Shown piece after piece: positions 1 to 22,258 of a stretch of 64,000 nucleotides of DNA (its first letter is position 1; each line of letters starts with the position of its first letter). Source of the DNA: a virus. Position numbers and translations under genes: made by a program. The notes below the pieces were generated by a model. It saw only the letters and a list, made by a program, of their open reading frames with translations. It did no database searches and was not told where the DNA came from. The stretch lies in the IMG/VR virus record IMGVR_UViG_3300018083_000001; one strand, written 5' to 3'.

Positions 1-555
1 CGCAGAAGCCCGGAACACAGTAACAGTCGCCCCACCAGCAAAACCGGATCGAACCGCAGGACGCACTTCAATTGTTAAAGAGCCACCGCCAGAAGCTGTG
101 CCACCTTCACTAACCCGATGTAAAGCCCTTACAGTCGTACCGCTGGTATAATCAAATGACAGATAATCTCCCGGCGATAAGATAAAACCGGCAGGCAAGC
201 TGCCAAGAACAATGGTATATGGAAGCGTTACAGACGTCAATGTGCACGTGCCGGTAAATCCTCCAAGGAAACCAGTATTTGCGTAGGCTAATGGATATTG
301 TCGGTATTGATCGTAGCCATAGAACTCTTGTATTGAAGACAATGTATCAAACCAAGCGCGCGCAACCCCCATCTTGGTAGCGTCCATTGCCTCAGATCGC
401 CATTCTCCAAGCCATAGATTTGGACCAATATCAAGAGCAATCTGCCGACCGGATCGTAATGGTGATATTTCCAGCATCGGCTTCAAGGTAAATGTAAGAC
501 CAGAAAGACGGTCACTTAGCTCAGATGGTATTGCCCTTGGGAAGGTAATAGCCAT
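1..555 (-). CDS. tail protein directly downstream of tape measure (distal-tail / minor-tail slot); 3' end outside the window
   Basis: My own minus-strand translation from ATG 553-555 (MAITFPRAIPSELSDRLSGLTF...) stays open for 185 codons to base 1. The ATG overlaps the TMP stop (TAATG) and GGAGG lies upstream. It is absent from the ORF track because there is no stop in the window. Confidence 0.6.
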   Translation of the reverse strand, partial: MAITFPRAIPSELSDRLSGLTFTLKPMLEISPLRSGRQIALDIGPNLWLGEWRSEAMDATKMGVARAWFDTLSSIQEFYGYDQYRQYPLAYANTGFLGGFTGTCTLTSVTLPYTIVLGSLPAGFILSPGDYLSFDYTSGTTVRALHRVSEGGTASGGGSLTIEVRPAVRSGFAGGATVTVFRASA

Positions 556-2969
556 TATACACCTCCCACCCTGCGGCTTTTGGCGTCTTGCATAGTCCGG
601 ATCACGATGCTTGGTATCTCCCTTTGCCGCGCCGCAATACGTTCATCAATCATTGCGACAGTTTTCTCGGATGCGTCCCCCTGGATGATGATATTGGTAC
701 CGCCGATATTTACTCCACCGCCGCGGCCATAGCTTTGTGTCTCCTCGCGACTAAGCACCCTCTCGCCAGGATGGGCTATGATCGGCACCCCATCGTCCGT
801 GATCATACCGCCACTGGCAAAGTGCGGGGCATTATCAAAGTATGCCGGATGGACCCATGTTGGTGTGCCTCTATCTCTTCCGACCAAGCCGCCTCTTCTG
901 AAGGCTCCCTCAATATTCAAGTTCCATGTATCATTAAACGATGGACTTGGATCCAACTTGGCATCTAATGGACTGAATGCGCCTTCGCTCATAACCGTGA
1001 CGCCTTTATCGCCGCCACCTCCTCCACCACCTAACAATTTTCCTAGTGCTCCTACTCCTGCGCCACCTCCTGCTGCTCCAGCAGCACCAGTAATAAGACT
1101 ACCGATACCACCACCACCGCCAATTCCAGTCAGCGCGGCTTTCAACGCCAGAGCGATAGGCTGAAGGATCAGCATCTGATTCATCATGCTTAGTAACGTG
1201 CGGATAGTCTGCAATCCAAATTCCTTCATAGCCTCGCTGGCGGACTTGGTACCCATCTGGAAATCAAGCAAAGCGTTATTCATGTTACTGAGGCCGACAA
1301 TAGCCACTTGATCAAGTTGCTTATTCAAATTAGCCGTCTCATTGATAAAGCTTTGCAGATGCGGCAAGCTTGATCCATAGACCTTCGCGGCTTCTGCCGC
1401 CTCCTTGGCGTGACGGGCATAATTGCTCATACTTGTATTGGCTTCTTGCTGCGTAAGATGCCCCTTCATAACTTCAATATTTAATTCTTTTTGCTTTTGA
1501 ATCATAAGCTCATCAGCAGTAACAATACCATTTGCAGCACGAACCTGTAGAATGGTATTAGATCGGGTTGCCTCTTCAACGGCCTTTGTCTCTTCAAGTA
1601 TGTTCTTCGCCTGCCTTGAAGTTATCCCAGCGCCAGCTTCGCGATTAGCCTTCTCAATCTCAAGACGTTTCAATTTAACAATATCAGTGATCTTGGCCTC
1701 TTCGCCAAGTAGATTAATACGTGCTTGTAGGGCAGACATTGCCTCGTTTGACTTAAATGCAGCAAGAGCACGGTCAGCGTATACCCGGAATGATTCCCCA
1801 TTCTTTGCTACTGCTGCGTCTAGCTCTTTGACTTTGAGCGCAAGACGCTCTGCTGGCGTTGCAGCATCACCAAGCACTTCCATCCATTTCTTAGTTTCAT
1901 TGTATGCCCGGATGGCGGCTTTCCTCGCCTCCTCTAAAGTTTTCTCTGGAGTGGCTACTGGAAAGACCGTGATTGCTACTGGTGATCGCGTTCCTCCACG
2001 AGTTTGCGTCTCATCCGTCGATTGCGCAGCTATCTTTGCAATAGACGTAGCAGCAGATAATAATTTCTCAGAAGCCCAATTAAGCAATTCCAAAACCTTC
2101 CCGGAAAAAATCTGAATGATTGCTGTACGAGCTGCGGCCATGTTCTTGGTAATGCTGTCCCCAAGGTCATCGAATTTTTTGGCGTTTTGCTCAGTGATAT
2201 TCTGCAACATGTTCAGATCAGACGTGAGCTTGCCAAGACCGCCACCCTCTTGCGACGCTCCAAGCAAGCGAGAGATGCCGCCGCCACCTCGACCAAAGAT
2301 TTGTCGAGACAGAACCAACGCCTGTTCCTGCGAACCAGCTTTGGCCGCCTTAGCTACCAAGTCCCAAGCTTCAGCAAGATCAGTCGTCTCAGAGATTTGT
2401 TTAGCGATAGCTGGATTCATCAACAGAAGCTGCTCGTAAACTGGACCTGTTGCCTCCTTAACATTGTCCATCTCAAATGAGAATTTTTCTAATCCCTTTG
2501 AGACAGAATTAGCAGACACGCCAACCTCAGCACCAGCCTTCTGCAAAGCTTGAATTTGCGTCGTTGTAAACGTAGTGGTCTCAGCAAAGTCTCTTAACTC
2601 ACCTGCCTTGTTTGCCATTTCAAGTGCGGCCTCTGCGGCTTTATGAAAGGCAAAAGCAAGAACGCCAAGTGTACCAGCAATAGCCACTCCTGCTACGCCG
2701 AATGATCGTAAGGCGGTTGTTATAATTCCAAAGCTACCACTAGCCAATGTGTTTTGCGCAACGACCTGCGTCATAGCATTCTTGACGGCAGTGATCTGAG
2801 TGGCGTGTCGTTCCATGCCGCCAGACGTTGTCCTTGCGCGAATATCCATCTCATGTAATTTAACTTCAGTGTTTTGTGCCTCCTTGTTGAACGCCTTGAG
2901 TGAAGCTGTCCCTTTATCCAAAGGGGCAGAGTCAACGGCAAATCCAAGCTCAGCAACAGTAGCCGCCAT
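555..2969 (-). CDS. tail tape measure protein
   Basis: 804 aa. The N-terminal two-thirds is long and helical, with Gly runs (GIGGGGGIG, LLGGGGGGGD). It lies after the G/G-T chaperone pair and before the distal tail gene. Confidence 0.85.
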   Translation of the reverse strand: MAATVAELGFAVDSAPLDKGTASLKAFNKEAQNTEVKLHEMDIRARTTSGGMERHATQITAVKNAMTQVVAQNTLASGSFGIITTALRSFGVAGVAIAGTLGVLAFAFHKAAEAALEMANKAGELRDFAETTTFTTTQIQALQKAGAEVGVSANSVSKGLEKFSFEMDNVKEATGPVYEQLLLMNPAIAKQISETTDLAEAWDLVAKAAKAGSQEQALVLSRQIFGRGGGGISRLLGASQEGGGLGKLTSDLNMLQNITEQNAKKFDDLGDSITKNMAAARTAIIQIFSGKVLELLNWASEKLLSAATSIAKIAAQSTDETQTRGGTRSPVAITVFPVATPEKTLEEARKAAIRAYNETKKWMEVLGDAATPAERLALKVKELDAAVAKNGESFRVYADRALAAFKSNEAMSALQARINLLGEEAKITDIVKLKRLEIEKANREAGAGITSRQAKNILEETKAVEEATRSNTILQVRAANGIVTADELMIQKQKELNIEVMKGHLTQQEANTSMSNYARHAKEAAEAAKVYGSSLPHLQSFINETANLNKQLDQVAIVGLSNMNNALLDFQMGTKSASEAMKEFGLQTIRTLLSMMNQMLILQPIALALKAALTGIGGGGGIGSLITGAAGAAGGGAGVGALGKLLGGGGGGGDKGVTVMSEGAFSPLDAKLDPSPSFNDTWNLNIEGAFRRGGLVGRDRGTPTWVHPAYFDNAPHFASGGMITDDGVPIIAHPGERVLSREETQSYGRGGGVNIGGTNIIIQGDASEKTVAMIDERIAARQREIPSIVIRTMQDAKSRRVGGV

Positions 2970-5667: not shown

Positions 5668-6690
5668 TCATTTGACTCCAGCAAGGAAGTCAACCACAGG
5701 TTCGCGCCAACATCGACAATTGATTACCTCGTCTGCCGGTCCATTTGGATCACCGGGATACATTAGCGCAACTCCATTGCCGGTTATAAATGGTTCATCT
5801 TGTTTAACGACTTGGCCATCCATAACCCGATGAGAGTCACGGGTACGATCATCGTGCGTCGCATGCCACATATATTCAACATTTTCTTTTTCAATAGCGC
5901 CCTGCGAGATACCTTGTCGCATCGCCTCATCCTGCGATTGATGCAAGGCGGCCATTGATTCGGTCCGTGCTATCGCTTCTGCGCGAAACTTCAATGCGCG
6001 GTTTTTGTAAGACGTAACCATCTTCTCCCGCAGCTCAGCAGGCACTGGCGCACCTTCCTCTGCCGCACGTCTCACTGCTCCATCAAACCTTTTGTCTCTG
6101 AGCGTACGGTTGAGCGCTGCCCCTGGCGCATCTGAGGCAAGTTCGTCCCGGTAATTGCGAACCCATTCCGCTTGCGACGAAGTGAGTCCCAATGTGCCGC
6201 CCTCACGGCGTCCAGACGCGCCAATACGTCCAACGAGATCGAGTGACGCAGTGCGCGGGTTGAGTCCTTTAGCCATCCCATCTGTTAGATGCTCCCGGAT
6301 CATATTGCGCTGATCTTCAAGTATCTCTGTGATTGACTTAGATGAATGTGCGCTAAGCCATTGCTCTGCGCTTTGATTGCGAACGGAAAATTGAATGACG
6401 GTCCTGAAGCCTTGTGGGTTCCTCGTGACAGGAATAAGTCTAGCTGTGGCGTTGCCTCCTGCTTCAAAGGCATTACCAATAGTCGCATCCCATTTGCGAA
6501 ATTGCACGGGATCAAGACCAACAGCACTAACAGCACCAGCAACATCGCCACTCTCAAGCATCCTAGCAATCTGCTGGATGTCAGCTCCCTTTCGCATATT
6601 CTGGACGGCATCATTGAATGCCTTTTGTAATTCGACATCCCAATGATCGATCAACCTATCAAAGAGACGATTTGTTCTAGCCTTCGCCAT
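5668..6690 (-). CDS. head morphogenesis / minor capsid protein (SPP1 gp7 / Mu F family)
   Basis: 340 aa. The C-terminal WHATHDDRTRDSHRVMDGQ ... EVINCRCW signature matches the family. Confidence 0.85.
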   Translation of the reverse strand: MAKARTNRLFDRLIDHWDVELQKAFNDAVQNMRKGADIQQIARMLESGDVAGAVSAVGLDPVQFRKWDATIGNAFEAGGNATARLIPVTRNPQGFRTVIQFSVRNQSAEQWLSAHSSKSITEILEDQRNMIREHLTDGMAKGLNPRTASLDLVGRIGASGRREGGTLGLTSSQAEWVRNYRDELASDAPGAALNRTLRDKRFDGAVRRAAEEGAPVPAELREKMVTSYKNRALKFRAEAIARTESMAALHQSQDEAMRQGISQGAIEKENVEYMWHATHDDRTRDSHRVMDGQVVKQDEPFITGNGVALMYPGDPNGPADEVINCRCWREPVVDFLAGVK

Positions 6691-6955: not shown

Positions 6956-7305
6956 ATCCGCCCTCTACATGTCCAGACTGCTGTTGCTGGATCAGTTGAT
7001 ACTTCAAGAACCATAAATTCCTGACCGCCATTTATCGTAACAACATCTCCAACCTTAGGCATGACCGATATGCTACCAGCAAGGATCATGATCTTGCGTT
7101 CATTCTCCGCCACAAGGCCATCTGCGCGCAACGACATTGAATATGTTTCAACAAGTGCCTTACAAGAATGAGTCGCTGTTACAAATTCAATTGAATCGCC
7201 ACTACCAACAACCTCAGTATCCCGTCTTAGGATTGCTGGAAAGAACACGTCAGTGAACGCTTTGTTAATTTGCGAAGCCATAGCGGCAATCGGAGAAGTG
7301 GCCAT
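6952..7305 (-). CDS. head-tail joining / head closure protein candidate
   Basis: 117 aa. Size and position in the connector cluster fit. The call rests on weak sequence resemblance only. Confidence 0.4.
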   Translation of the reverse strand: MATSPIAAMASQINKAFTDVFFPAILRRDTEVVGSGDSIEFVTATHSCKALVETYSMSLRADGLVAENERKIMILAGSISVMPKVGDVVTINGGQEFMVLEVSTDPATAVWTCRGRM

Positions 7306-7306
7306 G

Positions 7307-7603
7307 TTATTTTGTCTTCACTTTGAGTTTGACAGTTTGATCCCAGGTACGTCCGCCTGTCGTCAAGATGCGATTGATCAATTTATAAGTGACACCTTCA
7401 GTACCGCCAGATAGCCATATCGTTGTCGTTGTAGCGGTAAAGCTATCGCTGTTCTTGACGAGGCCAACTGGAACGATCCAAGTAGATGTTTGAATTACAT
7501 CACCGAGTGTACGTCCCGGTTGCGTTGCATTTCCTGCCCAATTGAGACTATAATCGGCAATCTCATCCGGGTCTTTGTTATCCCACTTGCCTGATAATGC
7601 CAC
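7307..7603 (-). CDS. hypothetical small beta-rich virion-module protein
   Basis: 98 aa with a GTG start, directly downstream of the 1838-aa gene. Confidence 0.5.
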   Translation of the reverse strand: MALSGKWDNKDPDEIADYSLNWAGNATQPGRTLGDVIQTSTWIVPVGLVKNSDSFTATTTTIWLSGGTEGVTYKLINRILTTGGRTWDQTVKLKVKTK

Positions 7604-7610
7604 TGTCGTC

Positions 7611-10600
7611 TCACTGTTGTTGGATTACAGATGCCGCATCTTCATCAATTAACACAAGTGCCATTCGACTTTCTGCTATTACTAACACACTATGACTTTC
7701 AATCATCGGCAAAGCTATGGTACTTTCATCTAGTACATTAGCAACGTGATCGGCCGCAATGTCGCTTGGTACGATGATCTCAGAGAAGATTACACCAGCT
7801 TGCGCCGTTGCCGCAGCACCGATCAGGAAGCCCTTAACATCAAACCTAGTTAGATTGCCAGCTGACGCAGTGACGAATGAACCAAGGAGCCTAGCGCCAC
7901 GCAGAAGGATACCAGCTTGCGCTTGAACTTGTGCGCCTTGAATTGCGAACGCTGATACGCGAGCAAATATCGCACCGGCAGTAACTTGGACTTGTATCCC
8001 AGATAACACGGCAGTAATAGCCTGGGATACCGTAAACAATCCAGCGGACGTTGTAGCTTGTACACCAATAAGCGATACGGCTTTTGTAGTCGGTGCTGAT
8101 AGCGTTCCAGCAAAGGTAGTAACAAACGCGCCTTGTATATTGACACTTATTGTACTTGCCGCAGCCGATGTAATTGTTCCAGCGCTTGCGGCAACCTGTG
8201 CGCCAAGAAGCGCGAAGATATCAGAGACGCCAAATGATCCTGGCGATGCCGTAACTTGTGCACCAGTTAGCGCAACGACCTTGGCGACCAGCGCCGCCAT
8301 CGCGCCAGCTTGCGCAGTAGCCTCAACACCAATAAGCGTAGGCGGTCTTGCGGCAAGAGAAATGATACCTGGCGATGCCGTAACTTGCGCGCCTGGTACC
8401 GCAACATTAGCCGTGCTTGCGGTATTTACAACAAGCGAACCAATTTGCGCCGTAACTTGTGCGCCAACGAATGCAAAGACATCGCCAATACCGAATGTAC
8501 CAGCGGAGGCGGTAGTTTGCGCGCCAGTAAGCGCGACAAGTTTAGCGATTGAAGTTATTAATGTCCCAGCTTGCGCAGTAACAGATGCGCCAGTAAGGAC
8601 TTTTGTAACAGGCTGCGCAAGGACGCCAGCCGAGATAGTAACTTGAGCTCCGGTCAGCGATACAAAAGTGGTACTGACCGTGGTTGCTGTTATCGTACCC
8701 GCAGTCGATGTAACTTGCGCGCCAATCAAAGCGAACGTATCGCTCAACCTAAATACGCCAGCAGTCGTAGCCGCTTGCGCACCAGTAAATGTAACTGCCA
8801 CGGCTTTGGTAACAGAGAGGAGGCCCGGAGTGGCGGTGGCTTGAGCGCCAACGAGACCAACAGGCTGTACCTTAGCAACCGTCAATATACCAGGAGACGC
8901 AGTGCATAATGCGCCAGGTAGCGTTTTGCTAATCGTCTCTCTTATAGAACCAGCAGAAGCTGAAACCTGAATGCCTGGAACTGCAACATTGGTAACTGTC
9001 GAAACAGCCGAGACACCTTTCACCTCTACCCACGAGACATAGACCCGCGCCAACACAACAGCGAACTGGAAGGTTCCAGCAGAGAAGGTACAACCCGCTC
9101 CAGCCAGATTAGCGGGAGTGAATTTTAAAGTAGTCAGTGTACCGGCAGAAGCAGAACAGGACGCACCAACAAGCGGCTTTGCTTCCGTGATCGCCAGCGA
9201 TCCTGCCGAAGCAGATGCTTGCGCACCAGTCAGTGAAACAAGTCTAGCGGTCGTTGGAGCTATCGAACCAGCGAACGTAGCTACCTGCGCGCCGGTTAAG
9301 AAAACCCGCTGCTGCGCGAGCGATCCAGCCGACGCGGTGACAGACGCGCCAGTTAGATTTACTGAGACAGAGCTAACAGCAATCGACTTGCCGTCCCAGG
9401 TGGTATATCCGCTCGCTGGAGGGGCACCTAAGAACGTACCATCAAACTTTGCGTTGAACACCTCACCATTGAGGCGAAGATCAATAGCAAGCGACAACCG
9501 GCCACCGCCAAGCGCCGAGATGCTAAAAGTGTTCCAGGCACCATTCTGTGTGATGTTACGAACGGAAACAGTGGCGGCAGAAGTATCAGCAGAGACAGAG
9601 TACCAATCACCGGCAGCAATGACCTTGTCGTGTGTTCCTACGTTAGAACCGCCAACATAAACAGGTCTGCCTGAACCAGTCCAGAAACCGATGCTGTTGT
9701 TATCCCAACCTAAATAAGCAGCAAGTGGCGTTACCAATGCTGACGCATTCGCGACACCGATAGAACTTGAAGGACCACCACCACCGCCAGTGAATTGTAC
9801 CTCAGCATAAATCTTGGTAGTGCCGACCGCATTAAGAGTTGAGAATGCCAGCCTGTCAGAGAAGTCGCCAGAAACCATAGTCGCTGTCAAATAATTATTT
9901 GACAGAATGATAGTTGGGAACGTGCGATCCGGATTAAAGAACGTAGCAGGATACGCACCCAACGTCCCGGCAGACATCGTCACCGATGCACCGGGCAGAT
10001 TTACACCGCCAGCTATCGCTTTACCATCCCAAGTGGAATAACCACTCGCGGGAGGCGTCCCTAAAAATGCACCGTCAAAGTTCGCGGTAAACGCATCAAA
10101 TTGATTAGCAAAGGTGCTAGCAAAACAAATTTCACCACTGGTTATACTAGAAATGGAAACTGTAGCGGACCAGCTTCCAGCACCTGTGATGTTCCTGAAT
10201 TGAATTGTGCCTGCGATACGATCAACCGCAATACCAATCCAGTCCCCAGTTCCAACCGCTGGCGAAACAGTGATGCCAGCGCTGACGCCATTGTAGTACG
10301 CAGTAGCACCATATAGTCCAATTGAATCGGTGCCTTGACCGATAAAACCTGAACCATTTGTGACATCAAAAGTAGTGGTAGCAACGCCAACACCGAAAGT
10401 TCCACTCGCTGTATCAAGATGAACCTCAGCATAAACTTTCGTGCTGCCGTGCGTCGGTGTAGAAAGAACGCTCGCTAAAGTCCCTGCAGCATTAGGCCTT
10501 GTCGCTGTCAGATAGTTATTTGACAATACGAGGTCTGGAAACTTACGATCTGGATTAAGAATAGTGCCGGCATATCCACGGAACGTCCCAGCGGACATCG

Positions 10601-13127
10601 TGACCGATGCACCAGCAAGCGCCACGACCGGAATGGACCTGCCGTCCCAGGTGGTGTAGCCGCTGGCTGCCGGAGGTCCACCTAGGAAAGGACCGTTAAA
10701 ATTTACGTTGAATACTTCGCCTTGATTGAAGGTGGCAATTCCGAGCGATTGCTGAACGCCACTGAGACCAGCATGACCTACTGTCTTCCAGATGCCGTTC
10801 TGCGTGATGTTGCGGAAATAACAGCGACCAGAACCAGTATCAACTGCAATGCCGAACCAATCACCCGCAACAGTGTTCGTCTTATCAATCGTCCCGACCT
10901 GGGCACCATTGATGAAGATATTGCCAGCGACATATATGCCAACTGAATTATTGTCGGAACCTAAATAATTGGTTAATGCCGCCGAGGCATTTGCGATACC
11001 GACCCCATCACCGGAGAGGCCAACACCGCCGCCAGCCATCTGAGCTTCAGCATAAAACTTAGTGGTAGATGCATCATTGAGAATTGAAAGAGACAACCGA
11101 TAATTAGAGGTCGCTGAAGTTCGAGTTGCCGTCAAGTAATTGTTAGATAGAGTAATGTCCGACAACGCCGTGCGACTTGAATCGAGGTACGCTCCAGAAA
11201 TAGTCTGAAACGTTCCAGCAGACAGCGTTGCTGATGCGCCAGGAAGATTGACCGTGATCGTAGAAACAACCGAGGTCCCAATCGTGCCTGCCGACATCGT
11301 AGCAGACGCGCCAGGAATATTAATAAATGGAGAGATCGAAACCGACAATGCCTGAGCGGACGCAGTGACCTGCGCACCGATCAAGTTTGGCTTGGTCAAT
11401 ACCTCTTGAGCGTCTAAAGCACCGGCGCTTGCCGTGACCGAGATGCCGGGAACATTGACATTGGTCGTTGCCGTTATCGCGCGGATATTATATTCGTTAT
11501 ACTTCAGAGTGCCATTGTCGTTGACAATGTAGCCAACAACATAGTTACTACCGCGCGCATACATACTGCCGCTGGAGCTGCGCGACAGGCCAGCATCTGT
11601 GTTAGGAACTGTTCCAGCAAATGCTAATACTGGAGAACCAAACGTCGCGCCATCGTTCGATGATTTAATCGCGTAAAGGTCGCTATCCGATGAATTGCGA
11701 TAAGCAATAGTTACTTCATCGGTATCAATATCCACGCCGATGCGATGCGGCGTTGAAGCAGCCGCAATACTTTGATTTGCAGTAGTAAGCGTCGGATTAT
11801 CCGAACTGTCAAAATACACGGTCTGCTGCGCAGCACCGACAGAAACGGTTGCAACAACTTTGGTGGTACCTGACCGGTCGTAGCTAACAGCATCGCAAGG
11901 ACCACCCCAAGCTCCTTGCGATACCGCCGTATTCATCGTATTGGCGGCTGACAATGTCCTAATACTATTAACTGATGCGGCTGGCTGAAACAAAAAATGG
12001 ACTCTGTCAGCAGCACCCAAGACTGCTGTCGGAGCTGAAGTATCAATTGCAGTATTGCCATCAACCTGGGTTTCTGTAGACCAAGTGTTGACCGCTGTGC
12101 GGCGACGATAATAAATGCGGGCACGGAACGTGCCTGAAGTCTTGGTCTGCAAACCATTATAGAACGCAACGACCTCGCCGTTACCGCGAACAACAAGCGA
12201 AGCATTAGCATTAGCGCCAGAAATTTGACCAGCTACAGAACCCGCTGCTGAGACCGTTTCCACAGTAGCAAGAAAAGTATCTGTTAGCGCATCAAATGAA
12301 AGATACTTGACCGCTTGAGACGTTGACGCCGTGCCGTCTTGCACCAGCAAATGAACCGTATAGCCAACCTGATACGCATCAACCCTCAGGATCGCGGTAG
12401 TGAAGCCGGTCTTGGTAGTAACACTCGCCCACGATGTATCCGGCGCGGTGGCCTTGAACGCCTGCAGCGTCGTACCAGTCGTACCATCGCGGCCAAAGAA
12501 GTAATATTGATCTGAAGCGACCGTGACAGCCTTGTAATAAGTGATCGCATAGTCGAATGGCGCGGCACTCTGACCAGCTAGATTGGCAACGGTGTTGCTG
12601 CTGCCATCAAGCGGCGTATAAGCCAGACCGCCGGTAATGTCGTTGACTGCATTGCCGACAAAACGAACACTATTCGCAGCACCAGAAGTAAGGATATAAA
12701 ACACAAGCGCGTACTGAGTTAAATTTGTCAGCGCAACCGGAGTAGCGAAATGAAACGAAATAGTAGTATTGCCGCCATTTGCAGTTAAGGTGCCTGAGAC
12801 TAAATCACTGGTCCCCAACACTGTACCAGTAGGAGCACCGACCGATAAGCTTGCGTGGTCCCTGAGCTCAACGTAACAATTTGCAATAGGAACGGCGGGA
12901 AGGCCAGTCCCCGCCAGTATGATTGAAACATCACTTAAACTATAACCAGGCGATGGCGTAAATGTCTGAGCCGCGATGTGTGAAGTAAATGCACCAGCCG
13001 TCACGTTGTTAGTTGTGGTCGTTACTCCACTTTGACCAACCGCGCTATAAGTCCCAGCCGCCACCTTGAATGGCCCGGCTGGCGCAACCGCCGTCGAGAT
13101 ACCAGTGATGGTGACGGGCAGTGCCAT
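7611..13127 (-). CDS. giant multi-domain virion-associated protein (Asp-box region, 3 SPRY-like modules, C-terminal short-repeat fibre)
   Basis: Single 1838-aa ORF whose ATG overlaps the upstream stop (TGATG). It has an Asp-box (SSNDGATF). Three ~207-aa modules each carry LSNNYLTAT. The C-terminal part holds ~25 units of L(T/I)GAQVTASAG-type repeats. Confidence 0.85.
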   Translation of the reverse strand: MALPVTITGISTAVAPAGPFKVAAGTYSAVGQSGVTTTTNNVTAGAFTSHIAAQTFTPSPGYSLSDVSIILAGTGLPAVPIANCYVELRDHASLSVGAPTGTVLGTSDLVSGTLTANGGNTTISFHFATPVALTNLTQYALVFYILTSGAANSVRFVGNAVNDITGGLAYTPLDGSSNTVANLAGQSAAPFDYAITYYKAVTVASDQYYFFGRDGTTGTTLQAFKATAPDTSWASVTTKTGFTTAILRVDAYQVGYTVHLLVQDGTASTSQAVKYLSFDALTDTFLATVETVSAAGSVAGQISGANANASLVVRGNGEVVAFYNGLQTKTSGTFRARIYYRRRTAVNTWSTETQVDGNTAIDTSAPTAVLGAADRVHFLFQPAASVNSIRTLSAANTMNTAVSQGAWGGPCDAVSYDRSGTTKVVATVSVGAAQQTVYFDSSDNPTLTTANQSIAAASTPHRIGVDIDTDEVTIAYRNSSDSDLYAIKSSNDGATFGSPVLAFAGTVPNTDAGLSRSSSGSMYARGSNYVVGYIVNDNGTLKYNEYNIRAITATTNVNVPGISVTASAGALDAQEVLTKPNLIGAQVTASAQALSVSISPFINIPGASATMSAGTIGTSVVSTITVNLPGASATLSAGTFQTISGAYLDSSRTALSDITLSNNYLTATRTSATSNYRLSLSILNDASTTKFYAEAQMAGGGVGLSGDGVGIANASAALTNYLGSDNNSVGIYVAGNIFINGAQVGTIDKTNTVAGDWFGIAVDTGSGRCYFRNITQNGIWKTVGHAGLSGVQQSLGIATFNQGEVFNVNFNGPFLGGPPAASGYTTWDGRSIPVVALAGASVTMSAGTFRGYAGTILNPDRKFPDLVLSNNYLTATRPNAAGTLASVLSTPTHGSTKVYAEVHLDTASGTFGVGVATTTFDVTNGSGFIGQGTDSIGLYGATAYYNGVSAGITVSPAVGTGDWIGIAVDRIAGTIQFRNITGAGSWSATVSISSITSGEICFASTFANQFDAFTANFDGAFLGTPPASGYSTWDGKAIAGGVNLPGASVTMSAGTLGAYPATFFNPDRTFPTIILSNNYLTATMVSGDFSDRLAFSTLNAVGTTKIYAEVQFTGGGGGPSSSIGVANASALVTPLAAYLGWDNNSIGFWTGSGRPVYVGGSNVGTHDKVIAAGDWYSVSADTSAATVSVRNITQNGAWNTFSISALGGGRLSLAIDLRLNGEVFNAKFDGTFLGAPPASGYTTWDGKSIAVSSVSVNLTGASVTASAGSLAQQRVFLTGAQVATFAGSIAPTTARLVSLTGAQASASAGSLAITEAKPLVGASCSASAGTLTTLKFTPANLAGAGCTFSAGTFQFAVVLARVYVSWVEVKGVSAVSTVTNVAVPGIQVSASAGSIRETISKTLPGALCTASPGILTVAKVQPVGLVGAQATATPGLLSVTKAVAVTFTGAQAATTAGVFRLSDTFALIGAQVTSTAGTITATTVSTTFVSLTGAQVTISAGVLAQPVTKVLTGASVTAQAGTLITSIAKLVALTGAQTTASAGTFGIGDVFAFVGAQVTAQIGSLVVNTASTANVAVPGAQVTASPGIISLAARPPTLIGVEATAQAGAMAALVAKVVALTGAQVTASPGSFGVSDIFALLGAQVAASAGTITSAAASTISVNIQGAFVTTFAGTLSAPTTKAVSLIGVQATTSAGLFTVSQAITAVLSGIQVQVTAGAIFARVSAFAIQGAQVQAQAGILLRGARLLGSFVTASAGNLTRFDVKGFLIGAAATAQAGVIFSEIIVPSDIAADHVANVLDESTIALPMIESHSVLVIAESRMALVLIDEDAASVIQQQ
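7770..9370 (-). repeat. degenerate coding tandem repeats (18-24-aa units, about 25 copies, with a ~4-unit super-repeat)
   Basis: Read from the protein, e.g. VALTGAQTTASAGTFGIGDVFAF / VGAQVTAQIGSLVVNTASTANVA / VPGAQVTASPGIISLAARPPT / LIGVEATAQAGAMAALVAKV. This 4-unit block recurs at least 3 times. Coordinates are approximate. Confidence 0.75.
9370..11200 (-). repeat. three tandem ~620-nt coding repeats encoding SPRY/B30.2-like (concanavalin-like) modules
   Basis: The LSNNYLTAT anchor occurs near 11135, 10515 and 9895. Each module also has K.YAEV, GVG(V/I)A, NS(I/V)G and GDW.G(I/V)A(V)D ... RNIT. Coordinates are approximate. Confidence 0.6.
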
Positions 13128-13480
13128 CAGCCCTGCTCGATCAGTTCGCGACCCCGCTCAAAGATGCCCTTGGGCACCACACCATTCTTCACTGCCAGTT
13201 TCCTGCCTGCTCGGTCGCTGTTACGGAACATTTCTCGGCAATCATATTGACGACATTCGTAGGGCGCACGCTCGTGAATCGAGCAACCACGTTCATTGAG
13301 GTAACAACAATCTCCGTTCGGCAGTCGGTCGAGGATCGTGATGGGCTCTTTGTCCAGCCCGTCGCGGTACCATTTCGCGGTATTATATTGGCTGGCATCA
13401 TCGCCCATCTCCGGACGTATCACGGTCATCATCCGGCAGCACAGCTTGCAGGAACCACACGGGACAACATTGCGGTTCAT
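13127..13480 (-). CDS. YkgJ/UPF0153-type Cys-cluster protein (family that includes flagellin lysine-N-methylase FliB)
   Basis: 117 aa from ATG 13480, in an ATGA overlap with the upstream stop. Motifs are PCGSCKLCC (CxxCxxCC) plus CCYLNERGCSIHERAPYECRQYDC. Confidence 0.75.
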   Translation of the reverse strand: MNRNVVPCGSCKLCCRMMTVIRPEMGDDASQYNTAKWYRDGLDKEPITILDRLPNGDCCYLNERGCSIHERAPYECRQYDCREMFRNSDRAGRKLAVKNGVVPKGIFERGRELIEQG

Positions 13481-16400
13481 GATACTGCGCCGGTCCAAAC
13501 CCAGCCGGTGCTGGAACCATGATTAGCCGTCAAAGCGTTCCACTGTGCGGCGTTACCGTAAAAGTCAAAAAGTGGAGTCCCATAGGCGCTATGCGATGTT
13601 GTTGGATTGACCAGAACGCCCGTCGTAGGATTACAGAAATTATTCTGAACGGTTGAATTACCAACATCAGCAGTAACGCCAGTCCACATCGCAGCCCGAT
13701 ACATGAGGCCATTGAACGGGAATATACCTTCACGCGAGCCTATCGCAAATGAAGAACCTCCAGCCGTGAACTCAAAATCAAGCGTACTACCTGAAGTATC
13801 ATCGACACCGTCATTGACCCATGCACCAGAACCCTCACGCCACACGCGTATCTTCGACGTGCCATCAGCATCGAGTGAGATAAGAATGTTAGCTCGCTCA
13901 GCGCCAATCACCGTAGTGTTATTCATAATAATTGGAGCAGCGGCAGCGGTATCCCGCCAGATAGTGCTGAGTGAACCCGATAGTGCTGGATGTCGGCAAG
14001 TGCCACTGGTACCACCTAACTGTGATATTAGATAATTAGGGTCTGCGCCAACAACAGAAGCAAAATCAACGCTTATGAAAATCAACGCCGTTCTGCCATC
14101 AGTCGGAGCAAGCTGCGTGCTCTTAGTCAACCAAGTGCTTCCATTAAACGTCACGCCATTCTCGGTGAACTCTGCTCCTGTAATGCTGAATGAACCAGCA
14201 TAGGCTCTGGCTTGAACGCCACGCAGACCGCCAGTCGGCCAAAGCGGCTCAGCCACGTCATAGAACAATTTTGTCCAGTTGGTCGTATCACCCCATTTGA
14301 CGTAATCATAATTTGAAGAGTTCCAGATCGGCGGGGCTGGTGGACGAACTTGCCCTTCCTCATCAATCCATCGCTTCAGGTACACAAAGAACGAATCATA
14401 ACCCCAACGTCCAACTTCACTAGCCAGAACCAAGGCGATTGCTAATCCTGAACAGCTCTGCGAACCGATGATCTGATAAGTAGCCGAATTGTGATGTTGA
14501 TAAGCACTACCGCTAGCAGGAGCAGGCGAGAATGCCGAGCCTCTGCGAACTTGGTAATAACTTGTATTGTCTGGCTGCGTCGTCCACGGAGCAGTGACCG
14601 TTGCGACCTTGGTACTGGAGTTCCAGCCTGATGAAGCCACCGTCCGCATCTGTCCTTCACCCGTCCCGGACCAGATGAAGATATGATCACCAGCTATGAT
14701 GCTGGGCGATTTGTCGGCTTGCAGAGTAATGGTCGATGTACCACCCGTCTGCGCCTTGCCACCGCCGTCAGTGAACGCTTGAAACGGAGCAACGAGCAAC
14801 TGCTTAGTTGTGTCGTTATAATGAATCATCTCGGCCTGTTGTCCGGAACCAGTGCCGCCGGTGATCTCCATGTTGTAAAAAAGCGAAGGGTTTCCGCTAT
14901 CAGCGTTAAGTGAAGCTGCAAGCTGGATCGAATCAGCCGTCCCGCCCTGAGCTATACCATAGCCCTTAACTATTCCTGTCGGATCGGTAAGGCCATAAAC
15001 AACATCCCGTGTCTCATGGTTATCGGGATAAGTCTTTGGCGTTCCCAATGTCGGATTAGCCCTGGAGCCATACAGGTCTTCATGGGCGCCATACCAGAAG
15101 GCACCATCCTCGTGATAGAACTCTTGGTCAGGATAAATACCTGCAGTGACGTTTCCAGGTTTCACACACATCGCCGGGACATTAAGGAACCGTCCAGCAA
15201 AGAATGCCAAGCCCTTCATGCCTGGACCAAAACCACCCAGCGCGATATTGCAAGGCATATTCAGCGCGACATGCGAATAGGCCATCAAGCCATCACGCAC
15301 GATGCGGTTGATAAGTTCATTTCGGCTTGGGCTATCTGACAACGCCCCAAGAATCATTCTGTTGGTATTTATTGCTTGGTACGCTGGATAGGCAAGTTGC
15401 GATCTGACAGGACACCATGACGTGTAGTAAACAATCGGTCCAAATCTTACCAGAGGCCGTTCATGGAATGGGTCAAGCATGTTATACCCGTTCCAGTTTG
15501 GCTCCTCGTATCCGACTGGCCGCGTGACCGGCGTGTAAAGGCTATAGTTGATATCGCTAGTGGTGTATGTCGGCTTGCCTGGCGATGCGACATAAAGACC
15601 AGTCGGCTTAATCGCATTGGCTGGTGGAGCACTCGCCACTACAGTGATCTCAAGAATGTTATAGCAAGCGTTGTACGCGCCGCCGCTTTGTACATTGTCG
15701 CAGCCGCGATAAAGCCAAATTGTCTTTGGACTCCCGTCTGGATAATGATCAATTGTTGCTGGTAAACTTATCGACAAGGCTGCGCTATAGTTACTTCCAG
15801 GACCAACATTGCTAACAGGATGCACTCGATCATCCATCCCCTGCAACAAACCTTGGGGATCGACCATGACCTTGCCCTTGTAGGAACCAAGACCCACGTA
15901 AGCAAGGTCACCAGTTGGAGCGACGGCTCCAGTCGTATCAATACCAAAGTTCAACAACCTTGCGCCGCCAGAAGGCGCAACAACCCACGGGCTGCCATCG
16001 ACGTAGACGCCGGTTGTAGGTTTTCCGCTGAATACTGCAGTGATCCCATCACGAGAAACAAACGTGAATGAATCCCATAGATCGCACATCCAACCGTTGC
16101 CAGACCCACCGAAGCCCTTTATGTCACGGTGGAACTTGCCACTTCCGACAAAGGTCGAGAAGTCTGTGCTATCGTCGAAGTAACGACCCCAATTTTCCCA
16201 CATCTTGGGATCGTTTAGATATCTTCTGGCAAACGCTGCAACCGATCCGTTTCCGCCCCAGGAAGCTTCATCTCCCATGATGGCCGAGGCCATGAACAAT
16301 CCCTGATGGCCGTATTGATTGGCAGCCATATAAGTTCCAAGCCAATTCGGCTCATTTGGATCAAACAGTTGGTTATAAGTGCCCTCACGAGAATTTGGAA

Positions 16401-18378
16401 AGTCTGGATTCCAGATAATGAATTTGTCTGTAGTATCAGGATTAGCCGAGAAGGCTGAGTTGACTGTTAATACCCTTGTCGTTCCGTTATAAGCGGTGCA
16501 AGTTTTCTTCTCATAGCTTCCGTCTATGTAGCCATAGATGGTTCGACCAACGAACATACCATCAACATTAAACAAAGTCGGGTATAACACCTCGTTGACT
16601 ATCTTAAATGTTGTGGCGTTTGCTGAATTAACTTGAACAAAATCACAGTAATATAATGGCTGATCCTTGTATGGATAAACATCATAGGTCAGACTTGGAT
16701 AACGCGCCGTTCCATTGCCGCCCTGACCGGCTGAATAATCCTGGAATGCCGTATCCCCGAACAGCGGATAGTCTCCAGTATGCCCAGCAGGCATCGTGTA
16801 TGCCACTGACGGAGTAGCACACCAGAACGTGCGAGTCTGCTCGCCCCATTTGTAGACGGTTTCACCAAAAAGATTTATCTTGCCAGTGGAAATGCTTGCG
16901 GCATTCTTCATACCAGTGTCGTTGAACAACAAGCCGGCAAACCGAATGAGCCAAAGCGGAGTGATAAAAAAACCTGCGCCGCACGAGAACGGTGCAGCAC
17001 CAACAAACTGAGCTACTGCATAAGCATCAATAGCAATCTGGATGAGACGCTTCAGGAATTTGTCTCGATCAGAAACATCGTGCAACACGTAACAGGCCAA
17101 CTTGCCCCAGGAACCGCCACGGTCGCGTGGATACCAATTCATATTCATTGCCGGAGACAGCATAGTATAACCGTTACGAGCAGTGCGATGCGGGGTGATA
17201 AAGTATTGCAAATCCTCGCATGACTCTTTGCGCATCTGCTCGTACTGAGTCATGAACGGAATGTAACCGCCATCAGCACCGATATAAACCGAGTCATCAT
17301 CAATGTGCCAAGCGTCAGAAGTAATGCCCTTAGGATTAAAAGGCGAGGTCAGATTTGGCAACAGACTGGTATTCAATTCACTGAAACGTCTGCGGGTCTT
17401 TATTGCGCCGTAATAAGCCGGGCGAAATTCATCAGCCCACGGAATGTAGTTGACGACAGTCAAACATGCCATACGCATCAGAGTCTGAACATTTGACGTC
17501 TGTAAATTGTATTGCGTATCGTCCATAGAAACAGAAGAGACGAGAGAGTCGCCTGGGTGCAAAACCGAACCATTGGTGTGGGCGTTATAAGATGCGTCAT
17601 AATCGATGGCGTTAGCATACGGACCATGCGGCAATAAAGTAGTATCGTTCTCAGTCGCCCTTCCGTCATAACCCTGCTTCATGGTCGTAGTGTAGCCATT
17701 ACCATCCAGCGCCACTTCAACCATCGTGTTGAACGTCGGATTTATCATTCCGCCGTTCTTTGTATTGACTCCTGTTCCGCTTGGAGGAGTGGACATTGTC
17801 GGCATCGGCAGTGTCGTGGCCGTGTAGACCCAGACATCGCCGTTGACATAAGTGCCATTGGTCACTGTGCCAGGGAACGTCCAGGACATCCCATTCGGAG
17901 CAGTCACCGTCGTCGTCCCACCAACAGCCGGATTGGCCGTGAACTCAAGCTCAAGATTATTGAAATTGGTAATCGCTGCAAGTTGCGGGGCCGTCAATGT
18001 TTGCACAACAGTAGTGAATGTTGCAGAAATGCCGGTATGCGTCCAACTGACGATCTCAGTGCTACCCTGCATCAACCGAACGAGCAAATCTGCTACGCCA
18101 CCAGATCCTGATTTTGCGTAGCGATAGCTGACCGTGACCGGATCGACCAATGTCGTACCGCCAGCAAGATTACCGAGGCTGACTCGGCACGTATCATTAG
18201 CGGCTAGCGATGATTGGATATAATCAGCATCATTGATTGATGCCTCATCAATGTACGAGAACAAATTGGCGCCAGCATCCTGTCCAGCCCAAGTGCCATC
18301 GCTCACATCAGCATCAGGCCTCATAAATGCATAAATAATGCTGCTTCGATAACCAAAGAATATTTTAAACTGCGACAT
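13477..18378 (-). CDS. giant virion-module protein with C-terminal LamG/concanavalin-like domain
   Basis: 1633-aa single ORF. The C-terminal ~180 aa (TALIFISVDF ... RVWREGSGAWVNDG ... FAIGSREGIFPFNGLMYRAAMWTGV) fits the LamG_3 pattern. I did not recognise the central region. Confidence 0.8.
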   Translation of the reverse strand: MSQFKIFFGYRSSIIYAFMRPDADVSDGTWAGQDAGANLFSYIDEASINDADYIQSSLAANDTCRVSLGNLAGGTTLVDPVTVSYRYAKSGSGGVADLLVRLMQGSTEIVSWTHTGISATFTTVVQTLTAPQLAAITNFNNLELEFTANPAVGGTTTVTAPNGMSWTFPGTVTNGTYVNGDVWVYTATTLPMPTMSTPPSGTGVNTKNGGMINPTFNTMVEVALDGNGYTTTMKQGYDGRATENDTTLLPHGPYANAIDYDASYNAHTNGSVLHPGDSLVSSVSMDDTQYNLQTSNVQTLMRMACLTVVNYIPWADEFRPAYYGAIKTRRRFSELNTSLLPNLTSPFNPKGITSDAWHIDDDSVYIGADGGYIPFMTQYEQMRKESCEDLQYFITPHRTARNGYTMLSPAMNMNWYPRDRGGSWGKLACYVLHDVSDRDKFLKRLIQIAIDAYAVAQFVGAAPFSCGAGFFITPLWLIRFAGLLFNDTGMKNAASISTGKINLFGETVYKWGEQTRTFWCATPSVAYTMPAGHTGDYPLFGDTAFQDYSAGQGGNGTARYPSLTYDVYPYKDQPLYYCDFVQVNSANATTFKIVNEVLYPTLFNVDGMFVGRTIYGYIDGSYEKKTCTAYNGTTRVLTVNSAFSANPDTTDKFIIWNPDFPNSREGTYNQLFDPNEPNWLGTYMAANQYGHQGLFMASAIMGDEASWGGNGSVAAFARRYLNDPKMWENWGRYFDDSTDFSTFVGSGKFHRDIKGFGGSGNGWMCDLWDSFTFVSRDGITAVFSGKPTTGVYVDGSPWVVAPSGGARLLNFGIDTTGAVAPTGDLAYVGLGSYKGKVMVDPQGLLQGMDDRVHPVSNVGPGSNYSAALSISLPATIDHYPDGSPKTIWLYRGCDNVQSGGAYNACYNILEITVVASAPPANAIKPTGLYVASPGKPTYTTSDINYSLYTPVTRPVGYEEPNWNGYNMLDPFHERPLVRFGPIVYYTSWCPVRSQLAYPAYQAINTNRMILGALSDSPSRNELINRIVRDGLMAYSHVALNMPCNIALGGFGPGMKGLAFFAGRFLNVPAMCVKPGNVTAGIYPDQEFYHEDGAFWYGAHEDLYGSRANPTLGTPKTYPDNHETRDVVYGLTDPTGIVKGYGIAQGGTADSIQLAASLNADSGNPSLFYNMEITGGTGSGQQAEMIHYNDTTKQLLVAPFQAFTDGGGKAQTGGTSTITLQADKSPSIIAGDHIFIWSGTGEGQMRTVASSGWNSSTKVATVTAPWTTQPDNTSYYQVRRGSAFSPAPASGSAYQHHNSATYQIIGSQSCSGLAIALVLASEVGRWGYDSFFVYLKRWIDEEGQVRPPAPPIWNSSNYDYVKWGDTTNWTKLFYDVAEPLWPTGGLRGVQARAYAGSFSITGAEFTENGVTFNGSTWLTKSTQLAPTDGRTALIFISVDFASVVGADPNYLISQLGGTSGTCRHPALSGSLSTIWRDTAAAAPIIMNNTTVIGAERANILISLDADGTSKIRVWREGSGAWVNDGVDDTSGSTLDFEFTAGGSSFAIGSREGIFPFNGLMYRAAMWTGVTADVGNSTVQNNFCNPTTGVLVNPTTSHSAYGTPLFDFYGNAAQWNALTANHGSSTGWVWTGAVS

Positions 18379-18383
18379 AACAA

Positions 18384-18698
18384 TTAAGCCGTCGTTGGAA
18401 TTGCAAGGACAAAGTCAGCCCACTCCTTAGGAGACGTCTGATCAATGCCAACGATGAAGATGTTATCGGCATTCATCTCAGTACTCGTCAGCGCAATCTT
18501 GACCGACACTGAACTTGCTGGCTCCACCACAGGCAATGTTGCTAAATTGGTCAATGCTCCTCCGTCTTTTGAAATTTTCCAATCACCAGCTGCTAACGTT
18601 GGACTGCTTTTAAATGAACCAGGATTGGCTGGATCAACAAGTGAAATGTATGTAACAAAATCTTCATTCTTGACCGGAGGATTATATGGTGCTGCCAT
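18384..18698 (-). CDS. hypothetical protein
   Basis: 104 aa, tightly packed in the operon. Confidence 0.6.
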   Translation of the reverse strand: MAAPYNPPVKNEDFVTYISLVDPANPGSFKSSPTLAAGDWKISKDGGALTNLATLPVVEPASSVSVKIALTSTEMNADNIFIVGIDQTSPKEWADFVLAIPTTA

Positions 18699-18701
18699 GT
18701 T

Positions 18702-21544: not shown

Positions 21545-22258
21545 TTACTCCGTGACCTTGTTCGCATTCTTGTTGTGCTTCTTGATGGCCTTGATGATGT
21601 CTGCTTTCAAGTAGGCATCGCCAAGGTCGATGTTGTTCTGTTCGGCATGTTCCTTGAGCTCAGCGACAGTCATGCCTTCCAGATCTTCATCTTCACTGCC
21701 TTGCGCTTTGTTGGCGCCGGAAGCCGCACGGCCAGAAGCAACCCTGGCCCTGGTTGCTGTAGGATCATTCGGATTTGGCGGACGACCAATCGTCGCTGCA
21801 GCAACCAGGGCCTCTGTGGCTTCTTGGACCTTCTCATGGACCTCTGGACGCAAGCCGCCAGGCTTGTCTTCCATGCCAACTGATTCACGCATCTGACCAG
21901 CCGACTTGCCGATGAACGCGCCATGGTTGTTCTCGAACTCCGTGGCGTCCTTGTCAGGATAGCGGATGTCGGTTGGGGTTGGCTCACTGTAGGTGCCGGA
22001 CGGATTCTTGTCCGTTGCCACCAGCCCACCGCCTTCATTGACACCATAGTTGGCATCGATGCGGCGTTTCGCCTTGTGATCCTCGTAAGCCTGTCGCTCA
22101 GCATCAGTCATCGGCCGATCAGCGTCCGCTGATTTGGCATCTTTGTCGAGCTTGTCTTCATATATCTCGTGCTCGCCTTCTTTGTAATCTTCTTGGTTGA
22201 TGACCTTGTACTCGTTGCCGTGCTCGTCGCTGTGCTTGACTCGTACTGTTCCCGCCAT
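21545..22258 (-). CDS. hypothetical acidic protein with C-terminal HeH/SAP-like motif
   Basis: 237 aa, just downstream of the coat gene. C-terminal MTVAELKEHAEQNNIDLGDAYLKADIIKAI resembles HeH / Rho-N type helix-extension-helix motifs. Confidence 0.6.
   Translation of the reverse strand: MAGTVRVKHSDEHGNEYKVINQEDYKEGEHEIYEDKLDKDAKSADADRPMTDAERQAYEDHKAKRRIDANYGVNEGGGLVATDKNPSGTYSEPTPTDIRYPDKDATEFENNHGAFIGKSAGQMRESVGMEDKPGGLRPEVHEKVQEATEALVAAATIGRPPNPNDPTATRARVASGRAASGANKAQGSEDEDLEGMTVAELKEHAEQNNIDLGDAYLKADIIKAIKKHNKNANKVTE

Follow-up and report, generated by a model that had tools for sequence, protein, structure and literature searches.

FliB of Salmonella is a [4Fe-4S]-containing, S-adenosylmethionine (SAM)-dependent methyltransferase that N-methylates lysines of flagellin. 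Its CX4CX3CC motif, which corresponds to CxxCxxCC, binds a [4Fe-4S] cluster, and its chemistry, which yields methylthioadenosine (MTA) as well as S-adenosylhomocysteine (SAH), has been proposed to involve radicals (PMC8598068). A second characterized enzyme, the DUF3109 protein DpdM, is a phage-encoded homologue of YkgJ in which a CxxxCxxCC motif is present and two metal sites are predicted; its substrate is dPreQ1, whose aminomethyl group it N-methylates (10.1101/2023.04.13.536721). Here, a gene of this general type was analyzed that is located in a 64,000-nt stretch of viral DNA (IMG/VR record IMGVR_UViG_3300018083_000001; this whole stretch is called the window). The gene encodes a 117-aa protein with eight conserved cysteines (the Cys protein) and is located between two giant genes for proteins of 1633 aa and 1838 aa. 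A sequence-only reading of the window had proposed that such a metal-cluster protein would modify or mature the neighboring giant proteins. The analysis led to a more specific result: the Cys gene and one lysine at the tip of a hairpin in the 1838-aa protein, Lys329, are gained and lost together, and they move as a unit between unrelated phages.

The predicted open reading frame for the 117-aa protein was recovered (Table 1); it is on the minus strand, which had been left unstated. The N-terminus of the protein is MNRNVVPCGSCKLCCRMM. The two proposed gene overlaps could both be read in the sequence. The ATG of the Cys gene (13480-13478) overlaps the TGA of the 1633-aa gene (13479-13477) in an ATGA, and its own TGA (13129-13127) shares the A with the ATG of the 1838-aa gene (13127-13125) in a TGATG. 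In the contigs examined first, the Cys gene was every time directly upstream of a gene for a protein of 892-1356 aa, and over their first ~550 residues, these proteins shared 39-67% identity with the N-terminal part of the 1838-aa protein. Beyond the Cys gene and this partner gene, the related genomes share no gene with the window (BLASTP, E<1e-5). The shared N-terminal module consists of a conserved N-terminal peptide, a beta-sandwich (residues ~1-190), and a beta-propeller (residues ~195-550), according to an AlphaFold2 (AF2) model with a predicted local distance difference test score (pLDDT) of 84.4 and a predicted template modeling score (pTM) of 0.83. Genes encoding this module are called propeller genes in the following.

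The association of the two genes was quantified for close relatives of the Cys protein, which were taken as those scoring 165 bits or higher with the family profile; this corresponds to ~50% or higher identity with the window protein. A propeller gene was found immediately downstream in 34 of 34 loci, of which 28 stemmed from a profile scan of IMG/VR and 6 had been found earlier. For 22 of these loci, an overlap or a distance of no more than 2 nt was observed, and in 9 loci the genes are separated by a gap of 141-176 nt. The propeller gene was beside none of the 51 more distant IMG/VR relatives. About half of the IMG/VR propeller genes, however, have no Cys gene within their flanks. Therefore, the Cys subfamily depends on the propeller, and not the reverse. 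The 1633-aa protein does not take part in this association: a comparable upstream gene was found solely in locus L009, which encodes a 91%-identical Cys relative, and the other loci have unrelated upstream genes. The expected co-occurrence with giant structural genes thus applied to the propeller gene, and the functional tie to both giant neighbors was narrowed to the N-terminal sandwich and propeller of one of them. The idea that both giant proteins are substrates was rejected, because the 1633-aa protein is not conserved beside the gene and has neither the propeller nor the KTSG hairpin described below. The strict adjacency across unrelated phages shows that the N-terminal module of the downstream 1838-aa protein is the only partner.

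Next, columns that discriminate propellers with and without an adjacent Cys gene were sought in a discovery alignment of 37 propeller modules, no two of which were identical; the gene was adjacent in 26 cases and absent in 11. Column 329 was a lysine in all 26 modules with the gene and in none of the 11 others. The surrounding motif is FYNGxQT-K-TSGT with the gene versus QT-N-TSGT without it, and is otherwise nearly identical. Because this column had been found post hoc, it was tested as one pre-specified column in an independent scan of metagenome contigs, which was confined to new sequences, excluding duplicates, for which 400 nt or more of upstream DNA were available. Lys329 was present in 22 of 22 domains with the gene, but in none of the 5 domains without it (three Asn, two gaps; exact p 1.2e-5). 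Combination of both sets yielded 65 non-identical domains, with Lys329 in 49/49 that are accompanied by the Cys gene and in 0/16 that are not. The latter have Asn (8), Ser (3), Thr (2), Ala (1), or a deletion (2) at this position, and never Arg. In eight of them, QT-N-TSGT is retained, and the lysine alone has been replaced. The presence of the gene changed at least seven times independently in a neighbor-joining tree that was built without column 329.

The six columns with the highest mutual information with gene presence are 329, 334, 354, 338, 328, and 327. Five of the six are within residues 327-338, and column 354 is 16 residues downstream. Column 334 contains F, Y, N, or Q in the presence of the gene versus P, S, A, or a gap in its absence, and column 354 contains Q or E versus an Arg in 10 of the 16 domains without the gene. 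In the AF2 model, strands 319-330 and 333-345 form a long hairpin, which places Lys329 next to the turn and, judging from the predicted secondary structure, probably exposes it. The tetrapeptide KTSG has a single occurrence in the 1633-aa and 1838-aa proteins taken together, namely at position 329.

Several loci deviate from the standard arrangement. One of the gaps between spaced Cys and propeller genes was inspected (L014:1560-1740) and holds an extra open reading frame of ~58 aa (MNEWIVLDPEPDVAIATGF...), which overlaps both neighbors; loci L012, L013, L015, L016, L020, L024, L025, and L036 are spaced like L014. At L090:5539-6000 and L096:547-954, the PF03692 gene is absent, and a different small Cys/His-rich open reading frame is directly upstream of the propeller gene (...VCKRHP...SSCCRHPEDHD...YVFHCRCGKQHRRFC...), for which neither a Pfam nor a PHROG match was found. 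It was rejected as a functional analogue, as the propellers of these two loci have Asn instead of Lys at position 329. Many related loci encode a 125-146-aa protein upstream that belongs to phrog_3758 ("virion structural protein") or phrog_644. As the window has no homologue of either, these small proteins were rejected as part of the unit.

The more distant relatives of the Cys protein are found next to genes for collagen-like tail fibers, terminase genes, or clusters of 2OG-Fe oxygenase and glycosyltransferase genes of marine phages. In L037-L039 (e.g., L037:4510-7608), a relative with ~50% identity and 134-135 bits is encoded between a gene for a 676-737-aa collagen-repeat tail fiber, the end of which abuts its start, and a gene for a proline-rich protein of 178-211 aa. 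This is a second, different association of a Cys relative with a fiber gene. The PF03692 relatives in L070-L085 (e.g., L075:7322-9129), which are IMG/VR contigs with marine-phage-like gene content, are distant. They are flanked by genes for a DUF6445/2OG-Fe oxygenase-like protein (phrog_1644, 'minor coat protein'), a family-2 glycosyltransferase, and a 430-440-aa protein, which may represent a cluster of protein- or glycan-modifying genes.

The family membership of the Cys protein was analyzed at several levels. The proposed CxxCxxCC motif and second Cys block are both present (Table 1). C59 in the second block is peculiar to the window protein, but the eight other cysteines (C8, C11, C14, C15, C58, C66, C76, C81) are kept by every one of the 44 complete sequences of the close subfamily. 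PF03692, a putative zinc- or iron-chelating domain family formerly called UPF0153 and represented by YkgJ, was the sole Pfam match of the window protein at E<=10 (residues 8-81, E 4.2e-4), and its score of 21.4 bits is slightly short of the Pfam gathering score of 23 bits. The profile was matched by 17 of 18 full-length relatives at E<=0.01 (best 4.2e-7), and four relatives carry a precomputed PF03692 match. By sequence, the UPF0153/YkgJ assignment of the sequence-only reading is therefore clear at the family level and marginal for the window protein by itself.

A protein search yielded 34 metagenomic homologues with identities of 56-91%, and a profile search of 1.8 billion cluster representatives yielded 1698 clusters at E<=1e-3. 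Judged by these homologue numbers, the Cys gene is a real gene. The best 150 of the 1698 clusters have lengths of 87-195 aa, mostly 100-190 aa, and most of them span the whole profile including the basic C-terminal helices. Among these 150 representatives, the eight cysteines are 91-100% conserved, and C58, C66, C76, and C81 reach 99-100%. Further conserved positions are G26, D27, Y32, G56, Y60, L61, G65, I68, P73, R77, F/Y79, D80, and R82. The retention of the polar non-Cys residues D27, Y32, Y60, D80, and R82 across very different contexts resembles a conserved active site more than a zinc module with a purely structural role. In the C-terminal helical region, which is strongly basic, R90, R93, F107, R109, and L113 are at least 97% conserved within the subfamily. 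The AF2 model of the Cys protein has a pLDDT of 83.7, and helices are predicted at residues 81-86, 90-98, and 104-116.

Many homologues are annotated from an 'MMT...' start and lack CxxCxxCC. These were not accepted as a distinct subfamily but are start-codon miscalls, because the motif is encoded in frame just upstream; the motif-bearing N-terminus of DpdM has likewise been lost via miscalled start codons (10.1101/2023.04.13.536721). Nothing in PHROGs matched the Cys protein, and the only match of its model in BFVD was an uncharacterized phage protein named "Zinc- or iron-chelating domain". Among 50,697 GenBank phage records, no match was found either to the DNA from 7000 to 19000 or, with tblastn, to the 117-aa protein. 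The species-representative genomes of GTDB contain solely distant relatives with 30-43% identity in unrelated contexts, which yielded no host assignment for the subfamily.

The propeller partner was characterized by Foldseek searches with the N-terminal module, which retrieved the seven-bladed Photorhabdus lectins PLL/PHL and GH33 sialidases with E values of 1e-9 to 1e-8 and a probability of 1.00. Residues 195-550 are thus predicted to adopt a six- or seven-bladed beta-propeller fold. An Asp-box-like motif, STDxGATW, is part of the family consensus. As possible counterparts of the GH33 catalytic Arg triad, Tyr/Glu nucleophile pair, and acid/base Asp, the residues R314, R343, R390, Y543, E290, and D537 are conserved; several of these may instead be structural, Asp-box-like residues. 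The C-terminal domains of the homologues are variable and are lectin-like, LamG, or Cthe_2159 domains. PDB sequence searches with the 1633-aa and the 1838-aa proteins matched nothing. The modular construction and the genomic context point to a fiber or receptor-binding protein, and a role of the 1838-aa protein on the virion surface appears probable from that context.

As the Cys protein is always found together with Lys329 of the adjoining fiber protein, it probably modifies this residue or docks onto it. The explanation that we favor, with slightly less than even confidence, is site-specific N-methylation of Lys329 by the 117-aa protein. The latter would be a stand-alone eight-Cys metalloprotein of the YkgJ/FliB/DpdM type that, by analogy, would bind a [4Fe-4S] cluster at CxxCxxCC and a second metal at another site. 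In the infected cell, it would act on the protein that is translated immediately afterwards, and its target would be Lys329, which is located at a beta-hairpin tip within one of the blades of the N-terminal propeller of the putative fiber protein. The chemistry would most likely be SAM-dependent N-methylation of the lysine epsilon-amine, because FliB and DpdM, the two characterized relatives, both methylate primary amines. The pattern of replacements is telling in this respect. The lysine has been lost in every lineage without the gene, it has never been exchanged for Arg, and half of these lineages keep the rest of the hairpin, which argues for selection against an unprocessed lysine rather than for random decay of a docking surface. 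We infer a covalent modification of Lys329 from this pattern, and methylation as its probable nature from the relatives. The earlier proposal of modification or maturation of a neighbor is thus strengthened by the joint gain and loss with Lys329, and the methylation contained in it stays at the level of analogy.

Several observations weigh against methylation by the Cys protein. FliB has a length of about 400 aa with a large C-terminal region, so that the size gap to the 117-aa protein is considerable. A recognizable SAM-binding element was not found in the 117-aa protein, nor were cofactor domains other than the Cys clusters. The window protein alone scores under the curated PF03692 threshold, and its profile alignment with YkgJ spans a 16-residue motif only, with 23% probability. 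No NCBIfam match of any kind was obtained for the window protein at E<=10 or for 18 relatives at E<=1, in a collection that is presumed, though unconfirmed, to hold a curated FliB model, and a Foldseek comparison of the Cys model with the PDB remained without a meaningful match (best E 4). An enzymatic activity in this subfamily would be deduced from the characterized relatives. In addition, distant relatives are encoded outside structural modules, e.g., in prophage recombination modules and in cellular loci, and therefore the function of the family is not intrinsically about virion proteins. Lastly, translational coupling on both sides would equally suit a stoichiometric subunit, and six domains not accompanied by the Cys gene have lost the tip of the hairpin, which also fits the loss of a docking site.

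The last two points lead to the alternative that survives best, although we regard it as rather unlikely. The Cys protein could be a stoichiometric zinc or Fe-S accessory subunit or an assembly factor that docks non-covalently on the Lys329 hairpin, either as a lasting part of the fiber in the virion or as a dedicated folding or assembly chaperone. The tight translational coupling would result in near-equimolar synthesis, the protein is small and has no recognizable cofactor-binding domain besides the Cys clusters, and the columns that correlate with the gene make up a single continuous element of the surface. An unused docking site would be expected to be lost, as the hairpin tip has been in six lineages that lack the gene, and the absence of the gene for 16 of the 65 propeller domains and for about half of the IMG/VR propeller loci shows that it is dispensable for the fold. 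However, after at least seven independent losses, no lineage has kept Lys329, though half of them have kept all other residues of the hairpin, and Arg is never the replacement. Fiber chaperones, moreover, are usually encoded downstream of their clients. The polar non-ligand residues are conserved by the broad family in unrelated contexts, and both characterized relatives are enzymes (PMC8598068; 10.1101/2023.04.13.536721).

A modification of Lys329 other than methylation would account equally well for the coupling of gene and residue, but we consider it improbable. Candidates are an Fe-S-dependent radical or redox cross-link, an aldehyde-type oxidation, or a charge-neutralizing acyl-type change. 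The radical chemistry proposed for FliB, with MTA as well as SAH as products (PMC8598068), would be compatible with such a reaction. Furthermore, the lysine is replaced by the small neutral residues N, S, T, and A and never by Arg, and R354 is found in 10 of the 16 domains without the gene, which may indicate that the mature residue is something other than a simple cation. On the other hand, N-methylation is the only precedent in the family, and no Trp, Tyr, Cys, Asp, or Glu partner is perfectly coupled to the gene; the closest residue, F334, varies among F, Y, N, and Q in domains with the gene. A generic role unrelated to the neighbor, as a regulator, a redox protein, or a DpdM-like DNA or RNA enzyme that hitch-hikes in module exchange, is very improbable. 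The strongly basic C-terminal region would be in accordance with it, and so would the distant relatives, which are encoded in cellular loci or in the early regions of prophages next to exonuclease, RecT-like, and HNH genes. However, hitch-hiking explains neither the perfect single-residue coupling in at least seven independent events and an independent test set nor the adjacency in 34 of 34 close-relative loci.

The genomic context of the unit was also analyzed, and the features are compiled in Table 1. The phage genome represented by the window has a size of at least 64 kb and a G+C content of 51%. Among its products are a DNA polymerase III alpha-like protein, an SNF2 helicase, and an amidase. 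The structural module on the minus strand starts with genes for the large terminase, portal, Ad1 adaptor, scaffold, and major capsid protein and for several proteins of unknown function. It continues with the 1633-aa protein, the Cys protein, the 1838-aa protein, a Gp77-like "fiber-tail adaptor", the head-closure protein Hc1, and MuF-like and tape-measure-like proteins. The neighboring Gp77-like adaptor suggests that the 1838-aa protein is a tail fiber. The order of the MuF-like and tape-measure-like genes is unusual and, together with this adaptor, points to a podophage of the GP4 type, equipped with ejection proteins, and not to a long-tailed phage.

Table 1. Coordinates of the Cys gene, its partner, and further features of the window
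Feature	Position	Strand	Remark
Gene for the 117-aa eight-Cys protein, PF03692/CxxCxxCC type	13127..13480 (CDS 13480..13130, stop 13129..13127)	minus	
CxxCxxCC motif CGSCKLCC (residues C8, C11, C14, C15)	13436..13459	minus	The four Cys are invariant in full-length relatives
Second Cys block CCYLNERGCSIHERAPYECRQYDC with C58, C66, C76, C81	13238..13309	minus	
Conserved basic C-terminal helical region, residues 85-116, FRNSDRxGRKLAVK...FERGRELL	13133..13228	minus	Beyond the PF03692 match
Hairpin QTKTSGTFRARI, residues 327-338 of the 1838-aa protein, with Lys329 (codon 12143..12141)	12114..12149	minus	Gained and lost together with the Cys gene
1838-aa gene, putative fiber or receptor-binding protein	7611..13127	minus	Translationally coupled (TGATG); SPRY domain at residues 899-981
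N-terminal module, residues 1-550 of the 1838-aa protein	11478..13127	minus	Only part co-conserved with the Cys gene
1633-aa upstream gene	13477..18378	minus	Stop overlaps the ATG of the Cys gene; outside the conserved unit
98-aa Gp77-like fiber-tail adaptor	7307..7603	minus	Just 3' of the 1838-aa gene; PF23148 (Podophage GP4 fiber-tail adaptor gp77), E 2e-20
MuF-like head-morphogenesis gene	5668..6690	minus	Downstream of the head-closure and adaptor genes
Tape-measure-like 804-aa gene	555..2969	minus	Downstream of the head-closure and adaptor genes
237-aa open reading frame with endonuclease VII/HNH-like C-terminus (phrog_3281)	21545..22258	minus	Within the structural module, just after the major capsid gene

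The N-terminus of the 1633-aa protein (residues 1-150) resembles the C-termini of two fiber-module proteins of L004, a 914-aa propeller protein and a 377-aa LamG protein, and its residues 131-447 resemble a tail protein of L002. Such resemblances point to extensive domain shuffling among giant proteins. Contig L004, which contains a Cys-propeller unit, encodes a 1241-aa Acb1-domain protein, an ADP-ribosyl exotoxin-like protein, and a zeta-toxin/AAA_33 protein downstream of the fiber genes (L004:16359-22664). These are candidate ejected anti-defense or effector proteins.

The earlier remark that such an arrangement is not known to have been described for phage virion proteins agrees with our literature search, in which reports were found neither on YkgJ-type proteins encoded in structural modules of phages nor on lysine methylation of phage fibers. 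Deliberate enzymatic post-translational modification of phage fibers is barely documented. The coupling of gene and residue turns the vague idea of a neighboring enzyme into a directly testable prediction for a single residue. If N-methylation of Lys329 is true, the large and functionally obscure YkgJ/PF03692 family with its 1698 clusters would have a specific protein-lysine substrate, and a 117-aa enzyme together with a 560-aa domain would be a minimal system for the unusual Fe-S-dependent N-methylation that has been proposed for FliB. Phage receptor-binding proteins could then bear modifications that are invisible in the sequence. This would matter for host-range prediction and for fiber engineering, as a fiber expressed without its partner would be the wrong product. 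It is conceivable, though doubtful, that the 117-aa protein is a minimal Fe-S lysine-modifying enzyme dedicated to one lysine of the phage's own receptor-binding fiber, that enzyme and target hairpin are mobile as a cassette, and that the lysine is either masked or mutated (K to N, S, or T). This masked-or-mutated pattern would fit a tuning of receptor binding. More speculatively, the fiber lysine might be protected from host attack, e.g., from the conjugation of ubiquitin-like proteins to phage tail proteins.

The unit can be compared with four known systems. Known fiber chaperones are usually encoded downstream of their clients, act on C-terminal trimeric tips, and are not known to be Cys-cluster metalloproteins. 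The Cys protein resembles them as a small protein that is encoded beside a fiber gene, is specific for one fiber domain, and is exchanged between phages together with that domain. In contrast to them, it is encoded upstream of its partner and is of the Cys-cluster type. DpdM is likewise phage-encoded, has two predicted metal sites formed from eight Cys, and methylates a primary aminomethyl group. However, its substrate is modified DNA and its gene is located in 7-deazaguanine clusters, whereas the phage Cys gene is part of a structural operon. Membership in the DpdM group was not supported, as the window protein has no DUF3109 match and its neighbors are structural genes without a 7-deazaguanine (DpdA, QueF) cluster.

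YkgJ of E. coli is similar in size to the phage protein (109 aa versus 117 aa), and the PF03692 order of motifs is shared, namely CxxCxxCC, C-x-x-L, C-x-I-(Y/H)-x-x-R, and C-R-x-(F/Y). The phage subfamily differs by its added conserved basic helical C-terminus and by its fixed genomic partner. In E. coli K-12 (L182, NC_000913.3 303853-309332), ykgJ is found ~310 nt downstream of the fimbrial genes ecpE, ecpD, and ecpC on the same strand. The positions of ykgJ beside ecp, of fliB beside fliC, and of the phage Cys gene beside a fiber gene have the adjacency to a surface filament in common, which may be a coincidence.

The tie to FliB that the sequence-only reading had drawn held for the PF03692-type set of eight Cys, but not for orthology, which was rejected on the basis of motif spacing, size, and profile match (CX4CX3CC in a protein of ~400 aa for FliB versus CX2CX2CC in a protein of 117 aa). 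As there was no NCBIfam match and no counterpart among solved structures, and as the alignment with YkgJ was confined to the motif, the phage proteins are a divergent PF03692-type subfamily and are not orthologues of any of the three. A further difference is that FliB methylates many surface lysines, whereas the phage protein implicates a single lysine at a hairpin tip. Nevertheless, both proteins have an N-terminal Cys motif that ends in CC and eight conserved Cys in total. FliB acts on lysines of an extracellular filament protein before its export or assembly and is encoded beside the gene of its substrate, and the residue coupled to the phage Cys gene is also a lysine of a neighboring, putatively surface-exposed protein. 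By analogy, the 117-aa protein would thus be most FliB-like in its action, that is, a Cys-cluster enzyme encoded beside its surface-filament substrate and acting on a lysine.

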